Positions 14,505-31,580 of a DNA stretch of 41,668 nucleotides are shown in pieces. Where the stretch lies: the NCBI GenBank assembly GCA_964653875.1, contig CAZZGH010000002.1:1-41668 (forward strand), given 5' to 3'. A model generated the notes under the pieces. It searched no databases, was not told where the DNA came from, and saw nothing but the letters and a program-made list of their open reading frames with translations. A program made the position numbers and the translations under genes. The stretch's first letter is position 1. Each line of letters begins with the position of its first letter. The stretch comes from an uncultured Candidatus Saccharibacteria bacterium (GTDB lineage: Bacteria; Patescibacteriota; Minisyncoccia; 2-02-FULL-40-12; GWA2-44-9).

Positions 14505-16247
14505 TTACCCCCTAAGTTTCGCCCACTCTTCCTTGGCTTTCTCTATCTCAAGTATCTGGCGGGGGTCGGAGGTGATTATCTGGTCTTCGGCATAAGATGC
14601 GACAACGCGGATGCCGATGTGGTTTTGGCCGAGGAAAAACAATCCGAAACCTACCCGTGCTTCCAGCAGGTAATATTTTTCCGCATCGGTTAAGTTGAAC
14701 GTTGTTTTAACCACCTCGATGGATGATGGCGATTGTTTCATAAGAACCTGTATAGAAGAGTTGCTTAAAATTGTTTTTCCTTGAGGCGATGCCAGAAAAT
14801 CAGGGATATCTTGTGATATGGTGGTCAGACCAGCATAATATTTTCTGGCACGCTTCGCGATATTGGAGAGGAAGTTAGCGCCTAATTCGTATTTCATGAG
14901 CCACCACGCCTCATCAACCACAAGGATTCGCTGTTTGAGCGTTCTTCTGATGGTTACCCACATGAAATTTAAAATTAGGTACATGGCAATTGGCCTTAAC
15001 TCCTCCTCCATTTCTCTAATACTGAAGACTATCATTTGGTTATCTAGCGAAACATTTGTCGGCTTGTTCAAAAAGCCAGCAAAGGTTCCCTGGGTGTATT
15101 TCTTCAACCTGATTGCCATTGACTCTGCTCCAGTTAGGCCTTCTAATATGCTTTGAAGGTCAGAAAGCAAGGGCGGTGAAGATTTGGTAAAGTTGACTTC
15201 TGGAGTGATATCCTTGATGGCATAAGTTTGGATTAAAGCTTCATCTAGGATGGCTGTTTCTTCGGGGGTCAATTCTCCGAGTATGAGTCGTAAAAGGCCA
15301 GTCAGATCAAGAATATGAGATTTGAAAACATCGGCCGGAGATTCGTCTTCTTTTGGTGTTGGCAGATCGAAGGGATTAATATGCTGATCGGAATTGACTG
15401 AGATTTTTATCGACGAGCCACCGATAGTGTCCGAAAGGTACTTGTATTCATTTTCGGGATCAATAATTAAAACCTGGGTTCCAAACAAAAGACTTCGTAA
15501 TATCTCAAGTTTGACAGTATAACTTTTTCCGCCACCTGATTTGCCGAACACAACAGAATTATAATTTTCAAGTTTGAATCTATCGAAAAGTACCAAGGAA
15601 TTATTGTGTGTGTTTATGCCATAAAGCACTCCGGAATTTGAGGTTAGGTCAAAAGAAACAAATGGGAACAAAGAAGAAAGGGGCTCCGTATTTAAGGAAG
15701 TATGGACATTGAGTCGGTCATCGTTAGAAGGCAGAGTTGAATTAAAACCTTCGTTCATCCTGAAAACGGCGGGTTTTGAAAAAACCAGCTGATATTCCAA
15801 GAGGCCCTTTATTTTATTCTCGGTCTCATCCAGCTCTTTAATGTTGTTTTCGTAGATTGTAATGTAGACACCAAGTTCAAAGAATTTGTCTGTTCCCTGT
15901 TGAAGCTTGTCGCGAAGTACTTCTATGTCTTGAATGCCGGTTTCAAGTATTGGATCGCGGACCTTGCCTTTTGAGGATTCTTCCATCGCCTGTGACTGGA
16001 GTCGAGCTAGCTGATCTCTTAATTGTTTAAGAACTGTAGTCGTATTTTTGGGAAGAATAAAAATAGAAATATCAAAAACACGATCTAAGTTTATAACTGG
16101 TGAAAACCAATTAGTGTGAAGATATCGAGGGTAGGTGGCCAAAAATATCGTGCGGGCGTATTTATCCCCTATTTGAAAATAATTAGGTGAAACACTGAAA
16201 GCTGAAGGGGCGAATAGTTCGTCTATTTTTTTATTATTCTGGTCCAT
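14505..16247 (-). CDS. virB4: VirB4/TraC/PrgJ-family T4SS ATPase, C-terminal ATPase part
   Basis: Walker A FGKSGGGKSYTVK and Walker B RILVVDEAWWLM. The region YARTIFLATYPRYLHTNWF is typical of the VirB4 middle region. Confidence 0.8.
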   Translation of the reverse strand: MDQNNKKIDELFAPSAFSVSPNYFQIGDKYARTIFLATYPRYLHTNWFSPVINLDRVFDISIFILPKNTTTVLKQLRDQLARLQSQAMEESSKGKVRDPILETGIQDIEVLRDKLQQGTDKFFELGVYITIYENNIKELDETENKIKGLLEYQLVFSKPAVFRMNEGFNSTLPSNDDRLNVHTSLNTEPLSSLFPFVSFDLTSNSGVLYGINTHNNSLVLFDRFKLENYNSVVFGKSGGGKSYTVKLEILRSLLFGTQVLIIDPENEYKYLSDTIGGSSIKISVNSDQHINPFDLPTPKEDESPADVFKSHILDLTGLLRLILGELTPEETAILDEALIQTYAIKDITPEVNFTKSSPPLLSDLQSILEGLTGAESMAIRLKKYTQGTFAGFLNKPTNVSLDNQMIVFSIREMEEELRPIAMYLILNFMWVTIRRTLKQRILVVDEAWWLMKYELGANFLSNIAKRARKYYAGLTTISQDIPDFLASPQGKTILSNSSIQVLMKQSPSSIEVVKTTFNLTDAEKYYLLEARVGFGLFFLGQNHIGIRVVASYAEDQIITSDPRQILEIEKAKEEWAKLRG

Positions 16248-27553: not shown

Positions 27554-27657
27554 GAATTTTGTGGTCACAAGTATTTTTCCTGACGGAAAAATCTCGCGAC
27601 CCCGGCTCGCGGTTTTTGCCTTTCGCTATCGCTCAAACAAAAACATCGCTCCGCCTT

Positions 27658-27705
27658 CCACAAGAGCTAAAAATCTCAAGCAGTTGAGGTTTTAAGCTCT
27701 TGTGG
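27658..27705 (-). terminator. Long hairpin immediately after tRNA-Ala copy 1
   Basis: ccacaagagct ... agctcttgtgg, with inner stem ctcaa-gcag-ttgag. It overlaps the last 3 nt of the tRNA. Confidence 0.5.
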
Positions 27706-27773
27706 ACCCGGGGAGAATCGAACTCCCGCCTCGACAATGCGAATGTTGCGTTATGCCACTTAACTACGGGCTC
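27703..27773 (-). tRNA. tRNA-Ala(CGC), copy 1, no encoded CCA, with two A-C mismatches
   Basis: Hand-folded cloverleaf. Acceptor gagcccg/cgggtcc with G3:U70. D stem gtta/taac. Anticodon loop ttCGCat. T arm gggag-ttcgatt-ctccc. A2:C71 mismatch plus one A-C in the anticodon stem. Confidence 0.75.
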
Positions 27774-28154
27774 TTATCTAACTTTTTTTATTTCACCAAA
27801 CGGGTGCGGTAATTCTCTGGCTTCAATGAGATCTTCCACGTGTTTTTGCCAAAGTTTTAATTTAGCTTCCATGTTTTCTCTGGCAACATTGTTTTGTGAA
27901 TGAATTCTAATCTCTGCTCGGAACAACTCAGGATGTTTTTCTGACATCCATTTCATGATTTCCAAACCCTCAGTTAGTTCTCCACTATTTTCACCCAAGT
28001 CATTATCAAGACTTAGGGCATCAATTCTTTCTCCAGATTTGCTGGCCTCGTCTATAAGAGACTTAAATTCTTCAAAATTAATCGCTACTCGCCAACCATC
28101 GGGTATCCAATTTTTCCGCTCGTTATGAGCTTGATCGTCTAAAAATATTTTCAT
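27774..28154 (-). CDS. Cyclic-phosphate-processing receiver (cREC)-like domain protein
   Basis: MKIFLDD...DGW...IDALSLDNDLGE...EGLEIMKWM...IRIHSQNNVARENM matches my recollection of the family pattern (LDD, GW, SLDHDLG, HS.NP..R..M). The internal ATG was chosen because the ORF-track N-terminus runs through a tRNA gene. Confidence 0.65.
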   Translation of the reverse strand: MKIFLDDQAHNERKNWIPDGWRVAINFEEFKSLIDEASKSGERIDALSLDNDLGENSGELTEGLEIMKWMSEKHPELFRAEIRIHSQNNVARENMEAKLKLWQKHVEDLIEARELPHPFGEIKKVR

Positions 28155-28190
28155 AGGTTTTTTATCAGTTAATCCTCGGTAAATCAAATT

Positions 28191-28264
28191 TGGTGGACCC
28201 GGCGGTAATCGAAACCGCGTCCCGGCAATGCGAATGCCGTATATTACCACTATACGACGGGCCC
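28191..28264 (-). tRNA. tRNA-Ala(CGC), copy 2, CCA encoded
   Basis: Acceptor gggcccg/cgggtcc with G3:U70. Perfect anticodon stem cggca/tgccg. Anticodon loop ttCGCat. T arm gcggt-ttcgatt-accgc. 3' ACCA. Confidence 0.85.
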
Positions 28265-28267
28265 AAT

Positions 28268-29152
28268 TTAAATTAATCTACTCAAAATTTTATCTAATTG
28301 ATTATTTGGATACAAGTCTTTAGGATAAATTCCAATAAGTTTTATCTTATTTTTGCGGCAGAGTTTAATTTTTTCTTTTACAGCCCTATCGTATCTTGGG
28401 CTATCTTTTGCAAGACCAAAGTATTCGACAAATATTTTACCATTTTTTATGGACCAATCGGCCTTGTGGTCGGTAGTCGGGTATTTTGTGTCACGGTTAT
28501 GGGGGATACCGCGCTTGGTTAGCCAGTTGTCGACTATGGCTTCAGAGATTGAATCACAGACATGGCCATCATTAGCTTTGGTTTTCATACGGCGATACAT
28601 GCGGTGGTCATGAGAACGATGTGGCGTAAAATTAGCGGCGATTATCGCGTTGTTCCATGAGCCAAATTGGTGGATAGCTTTATGTGATATTTCCATTATT
28701 TCTCTTTTGGCAGGAACTCGTTTGTTCTTGCCATAGTGATTCTTAATAATAGAAATTATCTGTTCTTTAGAATACTTAGGAACATGAGAATAATGAAAGC
28801 TTGACCACCCGCACTTACTTGAACAATATTTAGATTCCCTGTTCTTAAACTCCTTACCACAAACCTTGCAATATCTTTTGGGCCATTTTGGATATCTTTG
28901 ATTATTTACAATCGCAGCACAGGATTTAGAGCAGTAGTTAGACGCAGAAATGTTGCCTGGTGCTCTGTAGAATTTTTTGCCGCACTCATGGTTCTCGCAA
29001 AGTATAATACTGCCTCGTATTTTGGATTTGTAATGACATTTTTTAGAGCAAAATGAATGATAGCCAGCATTTTTGTTAAAAATAAAATAAGCTCTCTTCG
29101 TCAGGAATTGTTTGCGGCAAAAATAACATCGGATTTTTACCCTTGATAACAC
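28268..29152 (-). CDS. Triple zinc-ribbon protein with a homing-endonuclease-associated repeat and a C-terminal PD-(D/E)XK (Vsr/DUF559-like) nuclease-like domain
   Basis: Three CxxC...FCSxxC units. FGSWNNAIIAANF repeat motif. The C-terminus DSISEAIVDNWL...ADWSIKNGKIFVEYFG...KIKL...KLIGIY resembles a restriction-endonuclease fold. GTG start. Confidence 0.5.
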   Translation of the reverse strand: MLSRVKIRCYFCRKQFLTKRAYFIFNKNAGYHSFCSKKCHYKSKIRGSIILCENHECGKKFYRAPGNISASNYCSKSCAAIVNNQRYPKWPKRYCKVCGKEFKNRESKYCSSKCGWSSFHYSHVPKYSKEQIISIIKNHYGKNKRVPAKREIMEISHKAIHQFGSWNNAIIAANFTPHRSHDHRMYRRMKTKANDGHVCDSISEAIVDNWLTKRGIPHNRDTKYPTTDHKADWSIKNGKIFVEYFGLAKDSPRYDRAVKEKIKLCRKNKIKLIGIYPKDLYPNNQLDKILSRLI

Positions 29153-29164: not shown

Positions 29165-29221
29165 TCAAAGTTTAAGTCGAGCTACAAGGATTTGAATCTC
29201 GGATTCTTTCGCACCATTTTG

Positions 29222-29293
29222 TCAGGCTGGAGGGAGTCGGACCCTCTTTCTCTATCGCCCGAGGATAGCGTGTTACCGTTACACTACAGCCTG
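29222..29293 (-). tRNA. tRNA-Pro(CGG), no encoded CCA, unusual T-loop
   Basis: Acceptor caggctg/cagcctg (C1:G72, typical of bacterial tRNA-Pro). D arm gtgt-aacggta-acac. Anticodon loop ctCGGgc with G37. T arm gaggg-tccgact-ccctc. Confidence 0.8.
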
Positions 29294-29297
29294 GAAT

Positions 29298-30731
29298 TTA
29301 TACATAATATTTCTTCATCCTCTCCTTCTCTTCTTCCTCAATGGCTTTTTCTATTGTCTCCAACGATTTTCTTAATTCTTCCGGTGTTTTTTTATCCAAT
29401 TCATGAATTCTTTTTTCCAGATATTCTTTGGTGTTTTTATTTGGGTCGTCAATTACTTCAGCCAAAAGATAATTCAAGATTAATCCGATTTTTGGCCCTG
29501 GTTTTATATCAAGTTCCTTCATAATATCTTCTCCTCCAATTTTGAGCATTTTTACGGAGATAGGATCGCTGGAGACCTTGTCTATAATATACTGAAGATG
29601 GCGTAATTTATAGGGAACAGCCTTTGGTCTGCCCGAACCTATTCTGTCCGCTTCGCGGACCTTTATCAAGTCTTCAATATTTTCTAAGCTAATCTTTGTC
29701 AACAACCTTCTTACCGAGGACTCCGTTACCTCTTCGGGATTATAGTAGAACATATGGTAGCGGACCAGTTTTATTATTTTTTCAGCCTGATCTTTTGGGA
29801 ATTTTAGCCGAGACATTATTTCTGCAACCATTTTTGCCCCGATAACCTCATGGCCGTAGAATGTTGAATTCCGGCCCGCTCCCCTTTTAGATTTTGGTTT
29901 ACCTATGTCATGAAACAATGATGCCAAACGCACATCCAAAGAATAGTTTTTTTCTGCCGAATATTTTAGTGCCTTGACGAGATGTTCCCAAACGGTATAA
30001 ATATGGTGCAAGTTTTGTTCAACTCCAACTCCTTCTAATAATTCAGGAATAATATGTTTAAGCAACCCTGTTTCTTGGAGACGGATAACCCCGTCGTAGG
30101 CATTGTCGGAATTAATAATTTTTACAAATTCGTCCCGGATTCTCTCTTTGGAAATAGCTACCAGCCAGGCAGAGTTTTTGTTTATTGCTTCAAGTGTTTC
30201 CTTTTCTATTTTAAAACCAAGGAGCGTTGCAAATCTTATGGCTCTTAATAGTCGGAGGGCATCCTCATTAAATCTTTCTTCGGGCTTACCTACTGTCCTT
30301 ATTGTTTTGGATTTTAAGTCTTTCTGGCCGTTGAATAAGTCTATAATTTCTCCATTTATGTCCATTGCCAACGCATTTACCGTAAAATCACGCCGTGACA
30401 AGTCATCTTCAAGTTTGTCGGCGAATTTAACAGAATCTGGATGGCGTTTGTCCGTATATTTACCCTCAATACGGTATGGTGTGACCTCGACAAGAGCAAG
30501 TTCAGGTTTTTCTGAATTCGTTTTAACTGCTACTGTGCCGAATGTATTTTCATAGACATGTTCGGGGAATAATTTTTGTATTTTTTCGGGCTTGGCGTTT
30601 GTAGTGACATCCCAATCTTTCGGTTCTTTGCCCAATAACAAATCACGGACACAGCCTCCTACTGTATATCCTTCAAGTCCTGCGCTATTTAATTTTTTTA
30701 TAATCTCCCGTATTTCTTTTGGAAGTTGCAT
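29298..30731 (-). CDS. cca: CCA-adding tRNA nucleotidyltransferase with HD domain
   Basis: GGCVRDLLLG and DWDV polymerase-beta motifs. HD motif LFHDIGKP. 477 aa. Confidence 0.85.
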   Translation of the reverse strand: MQLPKEIREIIKKLNSAGLEGYTVGGCVRDLLLGKEPKDWDVTTNAKPEKIQKLFPEHVYENTFGTVAVKTNSEKPELALVEVTPYRIEGKYTDKRHPDSVKFADKLEDDLSRRDFTVNALAMDINGEIIDLFNGQKDLKSKTIRTVGKPEERFNEDALRLLRAIRFATLLGFKIEKETLEAINKNSAWLVAISKERIRDEFVKIINSDNAYDGVIRLQETGLLKHIIPELLEGVGVEQNLHHIYTVWEHLVKALKYSAEKNYSLDVRLASLFHDIGKPKSKRGAGRNSTFYGHEVIGAKMVAEIMSRLKFPKDQAEKIIKLVRYHMFYYNPEEVTESSVRRLLTKISLENIEDLIKVREADRIGSGRPKAVPYKLRHLQYIIDKVSSDPISVKMLKIGGEDIMKELDIKPGPKIGLILNYLLAEVIDDPNKNTKEYLEKRIHELDKKTPEELRKSLETIEKAIEEEEKERMKKYYV

Positions 30732-30743
30732 GTTTTCTTATGA

Positions 30744-30817
30744 TGCCCCGGGCAGGATTTGAACCTGCAGTCTTCCCCTTAGGACGGGGCTGCTTAATCC
30801 AATTAAGCTACCGGGGC
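30744..30817 (-). tRNA. tRNA-Arg(CCT), no encoded CCA
   Basis: Acceptor gccccgg/ccggggc. D arm gctt-aattggatt-aagc. Anticodon loop gtCCTaa. T arm gcagg-ttcaaat-cctgc. Confidence 0.85.
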
Positions 30818-31435
30818 GTTAATTTCTTTTGAAATACCGACAATCAAAGACCTAACTACTTTAAACAAATAGCCACTTTTCCTAACCGCAACTCTGCACA
30901 TTCCAAATTCAGTCCTACCCCTCTTGCCACCATCGTTATAATACATGTTAATTTGTTTTTTAGGAACTTTTGTTATTTTTGACCAGTGTCTTAAACACTT
31001 GTCTCGATTCATCCCGGTAAAATACCTGACAGTTATTAGTAGTTGGCCCTTGTCTACACGAAAACATTTTTTTAGTATGCCGATAAATATACTTATCATT
31101 TCTGCATTAGTATTGACGAAAGAAAAAGCATTTTTATTATCTCCTTCAGCCCAGTAAAGCATCGCTAAAAGACTTACTAAATATTTGTTGTTGCTGTTGA
31201 GAAGTATTCTTGCTTCATCTTTTGCTTTAATTAAATCTCGTTCTTTTTTTAACCTACTCCCGCCTTGATTGGCCTTTAATTTTAAGATATACTTTTTCCG
31301 TAACTTAATAGTGTGTATGTGATGCCATACTGTACTTTTTGGCATTGAGAGTATCTTAACCAGCTCCTCAATACTGTGACCTTCTTTTCGTAGCTGCTTT
31401 AGCTGCTCTACTTTTTCTAAAGAATGGACATGCAT
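30803..31435 (-). CDS. HTH plus LAGLIDADG-type homing-endonuclease-like protein
   Basis: N-terminal HTH-like HSIEELVKILSMPKSTVWHHI. LAGLIDADG-like motif LLAMLYWAEGD. The last 15 nt overlap the 5' end of tRNA-Arg. Confidence 0.6.
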   Translation of the reverse strand: MHVHSLEKVEQLKQLRKEGHSIEELVKILSMPKSTVWHHIHTIKLRKKYILKLKANQGGSRLKKERDLIKAKDEARILLNSNNKYLVSLLAMLYWAEGDNKNAFSFVNTNAEMISIFIGILKKCFRVDKGQLLITVRYFTGMNRDKCLRHWSKITKVPKKQINMYYNDGGKRGRTEFGMCRVAVRKSGYLFKVVRSLIVGISKEINAPVA

Positions 31436-31504: not shown

Positions 31505-31580
31505 GGGCCGTTAGCTCAGCTGGTAGAGCGTTTCTATGGCATAGAAAAGGTCACCGGTTCAAATCCGGTACGGTCCACCA
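31505..31580 (+). tRNA. tRNA-Ala(GGC), CCA encoded
   Basis: Acceptor gggccgt/acggtcc with G3:U70. Anticodon loop atGGCat. T arm accgg-ttcaaat-ccggt. Confidence 0.9.

Follow-up and report, generated by a model that had tools for sequence, protein, structure and literature searches.

The window analysed here comprises positions 1 to 41,668 of contig CAZZGH010000002.1 (GenBank assembly GCA_964653875.1) of an uncultured Candidatus Saccharibacteria bacterium within the Patescibacteria. On its minus strand a gene of the cREC family, encoding 126 amino acids (aa), is placed between two tRNA-Ala(CGC) genes, called copy 2 (upstream) and copy 1 (downstream) below. By its sequence the gene belongs to a cellular subfamily of cREC, a predicted cyclic-phosphate phosphoesterase, and members of this subfamily are found co-oriented beside tRNA genes in six independent tRNA contexts. 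We put the chances at about even that the whole reading holds: a cREC gene embedded in a tRNA operon, whose product would act on tRNA ends, and a tandem made of two alleles of one tRNA gene, of which copy 1 is decaying.

The widespread cREC family of predicted, receiver-derived phosphoesterases was established from genome comparisons of jumbo phages (Iyer et al., 2021, PMC7824862; Iyer et al., 2022, PMC9503650). Its members are mostly phage-borne and linked to tRNA ligase, sirtuin/KptA and Nudix genes, and they are predicted to resolve 2',3'-cyclic phosphates at RNA ends or ADP-ribose-1'',2''-cyclic phosphate (PMC7824862, PMC9503650). The window gene is located at 27774..28154 (minus strand). 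The listed open reading frame (ORF) is 158 aa long with a GTG start within copy 2. Since the homologues all start with MKIFLDD, the start was set at 28154, which gives 126 aa (MKIFLDD...KKVR) and a leader of 36 nt (28155..28190) between copy 2 and the start codon. The protein matches Pfam PF20274 (cREC_REC) with an E value of 2.4e-19 and 70.2 bits (cut-off 27) over profile positions 1-87 of 88; it also matches phrog_1479, and PF20274 is present in 19 of 19 homologues. Residues D6, D7, D50, D52, H85 and S86 are invariant among the 14 to 16 cREC homologues compared. The AlphaFold model (predicted local distance difference test score, pLDDT, 88.7) has a receiver-like fold. Its top matches in the PDB are weak ones to receiver domains (E 3e-3, template modelling (TM) score about 0.5), and its top matches among viral structures are annotated phage cREC proteins (E 3e-5, TM about 0.6). 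The profile gave nothing meaningful against PDB sequences, and the protein had no match among PADLOC defence systems. The initial annotation had placed the 126-aa product in the cREC family from its motifs, and these results bear it out. Like the published cREC proteins, it combines a significant Pfam match with a receiver-like fold, a DD motif after strand 1 and a DxD motif after strand 3, and it is a small stand-alone protein. The family is never linked to histidine kinases, and none was seen next to a subfamily member here. Unlike them, the window gene is on a cellular Patescibacteria chromosome. The published partners (tRNA ligases, sirtuin/KptA, Nudix, 2H and WYL) are missing here: no ligase, sirtuin, KptA, Nudix or 2H gene lies beside any subfamily member seen. 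The only recurrent neighbours are tRNA genes, joined in the window by the gene for the CCA-adding enzyme.

Genomic contexts were collected by exact-protein look-ups of the homologues and by a metagenome scan; the window subfamily comprises homologues of 38-67% identity, and the fetched loci carry labels of the form L001. In the window the order is Ala-CGC/cREC/Ala-CGC with gaps of 36 and 0 nt, the TAA stop codon of cREC directly adjoining G1 of copy 1. L020 has Pro-CGG/cREC/Ala-CGC, with 1 nt upstream and a stop codon that overlaps the tRNA start by 1 nt. Arg-TCT/cREC/Pro-TGG is found in three sub-lineages (1-192 nt and 4 nt) and Leu-Lys(CTT)/cREC/Ile-Val in L094 and L119-L121 (24 nt). The last two contexts are Ala-GGC/cREC in L098 (84 nt) and Val-GAC/cREC in L122 (65 nt). 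The tRNAs flanking cREC in the other genomes are unrelated isoacceptors, with no duplicates. A co-oriented tRNA gene is located 0.5-2 kb upstream of cREC in L001-4, L096, L099 and L123. A degraded case was also seen: L023 carries at 14625-14684 a 19-codon cREC remnant (MKIWLDDQLNNPERPNWVK*), 4 nt upstream of tRNA-Ala(CGC). Its intact counterpart is that of L020, and a GIY-YIG-like ORF follows the tRNA in both loci.

With a co-oriented tRNA gene at no more than 100 nt as the criterion, six of about 14 independent cREC contexts are positive, compared to 8.7% of control ORFs taken from similar, tRNA-rich loci (p about 7e-4). On viral contigs, 0 of 19 cREC homologues (distant ones; no close viral relative was found) have a tRNA gene within 4 kb. 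Among annotated phages there were two distant cREC matches, unannotated huge phages, with tRNA genes 4.6 kb off in one and none in the other. More distant metagenomic homologues are rarely beside tRNA genes. By these controls, tRNA linkage is a property of this cellular cREC subfamily. In a neighbour-joining tree the window cREC falls inside the Arg-TCT/Pro-TGG clade, far from the L020 protein, which occupies the same slot and is 38% identical. Within that clade a 4-nt ATAT spacer before tRNA-Pro is conserved. The window cREC and the other contexts share no leader or trailer, and the ORF alone is in common. The tree placement and the unshared flanks suggest that the cREC ORF moved between tRNA slots and landed each time beside tRNA genes; the window cREC probably arrived at its slot secondarily.

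Five tRNA genes were called in the window by ARAGORN and by the Rfam RF00005 covariance model (gathering score 29), and the two methods agree. Two of the five are the tRNA-Ala(CGC) genes on the minus strand. Copy 1, which we call the type A allele, is located at 27703..27773 and scores 51.1 bits; copy 2, the type B allele, is located at 28191..28264 including an encoded CCA (28194-28264 without it) and scores 56.7 bits. Both scores are well above the gathering score. The Rfam alignment and the raw sequence show that the two copies are alike in G3:U70, discriminator A73 and the anticodon loop UUCGCAU. Their T-stems, GGGAG/CUCCC in copy 1 and GCGGU/ACCGC in copy 2, differ in a compensatory manner throughout. 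The stems of copy 2 are perfect, and its CCA is encoded. In copy 1 CAA stands in place of CCA, and there are mismatches at A2:C71 and A28:C42, so that intact stems, taken as the mark of a functional tRNA-Ala, are found in copy 2 and not in copy 1. The initial annotation had described these folds, stems and mismatches correctly. It had put the identity of the copies at about 70%; the measured value is slightly higher, 54 of 71 positions or 76% by global alignment and 73% in register. The 17 differences are scattered over positions 9-62 of two full-length genes.

The relatives were examined in 80 loci fetched around orthologues of the CCA-adding enzyme gene and scanned for tRNA genes. The conserved order is tRNA-Ala(GGC) on the opposite strand, tRNA-Arg(CCT), the CCA-adding enzyme gene, tRNA-Pro(CGG), a variable gap, tRNA-Ala(CGC), 0-3 kb of other sequence, and the UvrD and KsgA genes. 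The initial annotation proposed looking for a single tRNA-Ala(CGC) at this site in related genomes, and a single gene is what was found in every one of about 55 loci spanning the site. Pairs with the same anticodon occur in three loci among the 373 tRNAs scanned: L020 and L041 have two tRNA-Leu(TAA) genes each, 4.6-5 kb apart, and L087 has two tRNA-Met(CAT) genes, an expected pairing. Between tRNA-Pro and tRNA-Ala the gap may be as short as 12 nt or as long as 5 kb, and it holds unrelated cargo, among it a membrane protein, dUTPase, HicAB- and RelE-type pairs, a serine recombinase, NAD kinase, transporters and nuclease-like genes. The tRNA-Ala(CGC) gene is inverted in four genomes (L011, L015, L035 and L042). 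From these comparisons the gap is judged to be a recombination-prone slot. In L011 the inversion is confined to a gap of about 110 nt, and the tRNA-Pro(CGG) gene is precisely inverted with respect to its conserved neighbours in L035, L046, L055 and L065.

The two copies are also known singly. L011, L013, L014 and L015 each have one tRNA-Ala(CGC), to which copy 2 is 99% identical; its identity to that of L016, L018 and L026 is 94-96%. Copy 1 equals the sole tRNA-Ala(CGC) of L012 save for the changes G2>A and G28>A. L011 to L014 are equidistant from the window, with identities of 80-82% in the CCA-adding enzyme and 84% in UvrD. Type-A-like tRNAs also occur in the distant relatives L031, L054, L082 and L085, and type B is limited to one subclade. 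The tRNAs of L023, L024 and L047 are mixed, with a B-like 5' half and an A-like 3' half. In run X4 a contig that joins 27727 to 28242 proved to carry the tRNA-Ala(GGC) of a community member, its D-arm equal to that of copy 2 and its T-arm to that of copy 1, which is another sign of mosaic tRNA bodies. The coupling of tRNA and protein sequences was examined in loci L011-L058 for four syntenic tRNAs: Pro(CGG) (29221-29293 in the window), Arg(CCT) (30744-30817), Ala(GGC) (31505-31580) and Ala(CGC). Their identity between genomes is uncorrelated with the identity of the adjacent CCA protein (Spearman rho 0.00-0.16), a weak correlation to which sequence saturation contributes. Close species differ by up to 38% in these tRNAs, and some distant ones share at least 93%. 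The discordant extremes suggest frequent exchange of tRNA alleles between species, and such dimorphism is not peculiar to tRNA-Ala(CGC). Copies 1 and 2, as judged from these comparisons, are alternative alleles that circulate among close species.

At each of the two positions where copy 1 departs from the L012 allele, a G-C pair has become A-C. Copy 1 is alone, out of about 50 reliably parsed orthologues (three mis-parsed or odd entries were set aside), in having mismatches in the acceptor and anticodon stems. Its predicted minimum free energy (MFE) structure, at -18.2 kcal/mol, is no cloverleaf. The L012 allele reaches -27.4 kcal/mol, so that about 9 kcal/mol of predicted stability is lost, and the MFE structure of copy 2 is a cloverleaf at -28.7 kcal/mol. 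Copy 1 thus looks damaged and is most likely decaying. The missing CCA tells nothing about origin: CCA is encoded in about a quarter of the orthologues, whichever the allele, and was rejected as a mark of origin because it is scattered among them. The trailer and hairpin behind copy 1 are orthologous to those after the single type-B gene of L018, just before uvrD, which indicates that the degenerate copy 1 holds the ancestral slot beside the terminator and UvrD; L011 and L015 also have the CAAG trailer. A contig of runs X3/X6, in which a type-B gene runs straight to the terminator, was considered as an empty site from a cREC-less strain of the window organism. It was rejected, as the 10 intervening letters match L018, and the contig is from another species.

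On the minus strand the genes follow one another closely. The tRNA-Arg(CCT) gene (30744..30817; ARAGORN, Rfam and synteny) is followed after 12 nt by the gene for the CCA-adding enzyme (29298..30731), identified by Pfam (PolyA_pol head and HD domain) and by synteny across the 80 loci. After 4 nt comes tRNA-Pro(CGG) (29221..29293; ARAGORN, Rfam and synteny), the conserved upstream border of the variable slot. After another 68 nt there is a gene for a Cys-rich protein of 294 aa, 'HNHrep' (28268..29152), whose stop codon is 3 nt from copy 2. The row continues with cREC and copy 1 and ends with a 23-bp hairpin and T-run (27657..27706, minus strand) that resembles a terminator, is 91% complementary as an inverted repeat and takes in the final 4 nt of copy 1. 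Another hairpin of terminator type is located at 27595-27611. A terminator scan of the spaces between genes from tRNA-Arg(CCT) to copy 1 found no terminator-like site, and found these two after copy 1. Because the gaps are tiny and no such site lies between the genes, the row from tRNA-Arg(CCT) to copy 1 can be inferred to form one alternating tRNA/protein transcription unit. The CCA-adding enzyme gene itself is wedged between tRNA genes in the relatives, with Arg upstream (median distance 9 nt) and Pro(CGG) downstream; of 74 loci, 42 have a co-oriented tRNA gene at most 150 nt upstream and 39 have one at that distance downstream. A 210-aa ORF (30803-31435), for which Pfam gave no match, shares about 15 nt with the 5' end of tRNA-Arg(CCT); its homologues show an equal small overlap in L015, L030, L034 and L037 and a gap of 10-13 nt in L039 and L050.

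In the thrU-tyrU-glyT-thrT-tufB operon of E. coli and in the 'tRNA punctuation' of mitochondria, protein genes are co-transcribed with tRNAs and freed by tRNA processing. The window resembles both in that the ORF directly adjoins same-strand tRNAs. The cREC stop codon touches the tRNA 5' end as in mitochondria, and the cREC product is presumably tRNA-related like the EF-Tu encoded by tufB. The tufB operon has longer spacers, and in the window co-transcription and processing are putative. In the mechanism that we propose, cREC would be transcribed together with the flanking tRNAs, and its message would be cut from the precursor by ribonuclease (RNase) P and RNase Z. The protein would open the 2',3'-cyclic phosphate ends that metal-independent RNases or toxins leave on tRNA. 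Restoring the tRNA would then be the task of a phosphatase plus the CCA-adding enzyme, a ligase or another end-repair enzyme. In E. coli the HD domain of the CCA-adding enzyme acts both as a phosphatase and as a 2',3'-cyclic phosphodiesterase. Repair of tRNA cut by toxins is carried out by T4 Pnk/Rnl1 against PrrC, by Pnkp/Hen1 and by RtcA/RtcB. Like the T4 Pnk/Rnl1 type, cREC is predicted to heal 2',3'-cyclic phosphate ends, with tRNA as the presumed substrate; in contrast to it, the neighbourhood offers no RNA-end enzyme beyond the CCA-adding enzyme and its HD domain, and no ligase, kinase or methyltransferase partner for RNA repair was found in the window. The embedding of cREC in rows of tRNA genes favours the RNA-end option of the family prediction with tRNA as the substrate, and the cREC product most likely acts on tRNA. 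As for the tandem, the recombination that brought cREC into the slot would have put two tRNA-Ala(CGC) alleles in tandem. Copy 2 would be the working gene and copy 1 would be redundant, its decay begun by the two G>A changes. Copy 1 may still act as the RNase P processing site and as the terminator-proximal end of the cREC message.

Several points weigh against this reading. The activity of cREC is a prediction even for the founding members, and ADP-ribose-1'',2''-cyclic phosphate and cyclic ADP-ribose are equally plausible substrates (PMC9503650). The subfamily members of L010, L095 and L124 have no tRNA gene near them, and in L098 an intrinsic terminator lies between the tRNA and cREC. The tRNA-Pro/tRNA-Ala gap is full of unrelated cargo, and the linkage may partly be a hot-spot effect. 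The neighbour-joining tree was built for a protein of 126 aa and carries no support values. Two substitutions are too few to prove decay of copy 1; we roughly estimate that two hits placed at random would each break a pair in about one case out of four. The window sequence was sought in RNA sequencing runs and was matched in none.

The hot-spot argument can be carried further. The tRNA genes would then be mere anchors, and cREC would act on NAD+- or ADP-ribose-derived or cyclic-nucleotide molecules in phage-host conflict. The nuclease-like, toxin-antitoxin, serine recombinase, transporter, dUTPase and NAD kinase genes of the slot are compatible with this, as are the subfamily members without nearby tRNAs and the emphasis of the literature on NAD+/ADP-ribose contexts. 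We regard it as unlikely, though the strongest of the alternatives: cREC occurs in six independent tRNA contexts, three of them with tRNAs on both sides at no more than 36 nt, the enrichment was measured over ORFs from similar loci, and no NAD+/ADP-ribose-processing gene adjoins any subfamily member seen. The CCA-adding enzyme gene, a genuine tRNA-maturation gene, is embedded in the same fashion.

For the origin of the tandem we give most weight to a recombination that inserted cREC and one allele beside the other, with one end in homologous flank and the other end joined illegitimately. This rests on three things: the tandem is unique among about 55 relatives, its cREC is of a foreign clade, and tRNA alleles appear to be exchanged frequently. 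The tandem could instead be ancient, the ancestor of the subclade having had type B/cREC/type A and the relatives having lost one tRNA and cREC by recombination between the copies. Some features fit such a loss. The type-B gene of L018 bears the trailer and terminator that follow type A in the window, and the CAAG trailer recurs in L011 and L015. Both alleles are 97-100% conserved across species whose CCA-adding enzymes are about 80% identical. The B-like/A-like tRNAs of L023, L024 and L047 are the expected product of a B-to-A crossover, although they could equally be evolutionary intermediates, and the cREC remnant of L023 is beside tRNA-Ala. However, none of about 55 relatives has kept the tandem, the window cREC is nearer to the Arg/Pro-slot homologues than to the L020/L023 type at the same slot (38% identity), and the shuffling of all four syntenic tRNAs explains the shared alleles without paralogy. 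We consider an ancient tandem doubtful and prefer the recombination route.

The initial annotation took the locus for an acquired module that carried its own tRNA-Ala(CGC) and integrated at or next to tRNA-Ala, and suggested that it may be a tRNA replacement or repair device against anticodon nucleases. Part of this stands. The tRNA gene is single in the relatives, nearly all of which are without cREC; the cREC gene groups with homologues from another slot and not with that of L020 and was probably acquired; and a tRNA-related repair role fits the published prediction for the family (PMC7824862, PMC9503650) and is strengthened by the recurrent tRNA linkage. There is also a phage precedent for extra tRNA copies that overcome a tRNA-cleaving defence (PMC13096335). 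The notion of a module with its own isoacceptor found no support: both copies correspond to native alleles, each the only one in some sister species, and cREC is flanked elsewhere by non-duplicated tRNAs of other isotypes. Copy 1, which had looked foreign by its lack of CCA and its mismatches, sits in the ancestral slot by the conserved terminator and UvrD. A replacement against anticodon nucleases is unlikely as well, given that a nuclease of the anticodon loop would cut both copies, whose loops are identical, and that the putative spare, copy 1, bears two pair-breaking changes. In all, we think a module of this kind improbable.

Genomic islands and prophages that target tRNA genes carry an integrase, and part of the tRNA, its 3' end, is repeated exactly. 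The window resembles them in having an accessory gene by a tRNA and a second tRNA-like copy at its other end. It differs in that both copies are full length with 17 differences. No integrase or recombinase gene was found between or near the copies: cREC alone lies between them, and the neighbours are UvrD, the endonuclease-like protein and the CCA-adding enzyme. A search for att-type repeats found no exact partial tRNA repeat and, apart from the tRNAs, no flanking direct repeat. The composition scan gave a GC content of 0.36-0.44 throughout the window without a shift, and foreign origin by composition was rejected accordingly. All three marks (recombinase, exact partial repeat, composition shift) being absent, an island of the integrase type is excluded.

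A further candidate for the origin of the tandem is the 294-aa gene next to copy 2. A homing endonuclease could have cut at or near the tRNA, and repair could have duplicated or co-converted it. The protein has a homing-endonuclease-associated repeat (Pfam HNH_repeat, E 1.2e-7) and a C-terminal nuclease-like domain that matches the PADLOC defence candidate PDC-S69, and it is annotated via phrog_1271 as 'HNH endonuclease'. Its gene is polymorphic in presence at a conserved site: of about 55 loci, six carry it in this slot (L015, L022, L025, L026, L028 and L032), after tRNA-Pro(CGG) in every case, and a contig of run X1 joins tRNA-Ala straight to tRNA-Pro without it. The GIY-YIG-like ORFs after tRNA-Ala in L020 and L023 are of a similar kind. 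Free-standing homing endonuclease genes occur in phage tRNA clusters, such as SegB of T4 and T6 (PMC2330249, PMC13096335), and SegB-driven tRNA amplification against Septu has been documented (PMC13096335). As in those clusters, an endonuclease-like accessory gene of polymorphic presence is placed between tRNAs, a neighbouring tRNA is duplicated and tRNA damage is the theme. Unlike them, the window is cellular, its copies are diverged alleles and not identical repeats, and the nuclease activity of the 294-aa protein is putative, a Pfam search having found no recognised catalytic nuclease domain and the PDB no sequence match. Since the copies are 76% identical, a recent amplification did not take place, and all six relatives with the gene have a single tRNA-Ala; we give this route little credence. 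Presence of the 294-aa gene was also tried as a tracker of the neighbouring tRNA allele and rejected for want of a clean correspondence. An assembly artefact joining two strains with different alleles is very improbable: both alleles do occur in more abundant co-resident populations (tRNA segments at 200-1000x against about 9x for unique sequence), but unitigs from four groundwater runs of two studies cover the tandem region, one 518-nt contig equals 27703-28220 (copy 1, cREC and into copy 2) with zero differences, and the longest identical stretch between the copies, about 11-12 nt, is too short to mislead an assembler.

The window is part of an ordinary chromosome of a groundwater Patescibacteria, neither prophage nor island. 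The CCA-adding enzyme has its relatives in genomes of the Candidatus Yanofskybacteria type (Patescibacteria), and the organism is placed among these. The other genes are housekeeping genes, among them type IV pilus genes, GatC/GatA, the NAD-dependent DNA ligase LigA, KsgA, Lnt and the UvrD/PcrA helicase. A VirB4/TraG-like ATPase (14505-16247) is probably from a type IV secretion-like system common in Patescibacteria. The 50 nt at 27563-27612, which lie between the hairpins and the uvrD start, are covered by unitigs of 100-1700x depth in groundwater runs against about 9x for the surroundings, and these unitigs run into unrelated sequence at either side. The stretch is single in the window and absent from 124 fetched loci; it may be a short shared element.

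The duplicated tRNA is probably a transient by-product of limited importance. Of greater interest is that a cellular cREC subfamily is embedded time and again in tRNA operons of Patescibacteria, whose tRNA alleles are unusually fluid. As the sole recurrent partner, the tRNA genes give independent support to the predicted action of cREC on RNA ends, specifically those of tRNA, and the window protein, a stand-alone protein with four invariant aspartates, is a simple object on which to test it. The tRNA rows of Patescibacteria come across as packed operons with tRNA-related enzymes and accessory nucleases, and the syntenic tRNA genes as passing from species to species much more freely than the protein genes beside them. 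We put forward only tentatively, as the less probable extension, that the Patescibacteria cREC is a dedicated tRNA-end repair enzyme encoded in 'tRNA-punctuated' operons. If this is true, tRNA genes would be in an arms race with tRNA-targeting nucleases or with endonucleases that target tRNA genes, and the arms race would cause tRNA alleles to be replaced rapidly between species. The window would show one such replacement under way, two alleles in tandem with the repair gene between them, and the decaying copy would be kept as the RNase P signal that fixes the 3' end of the cREC message. If general, these findings would bear on how ultra-small bacteria maintain and defend their translation machinery.

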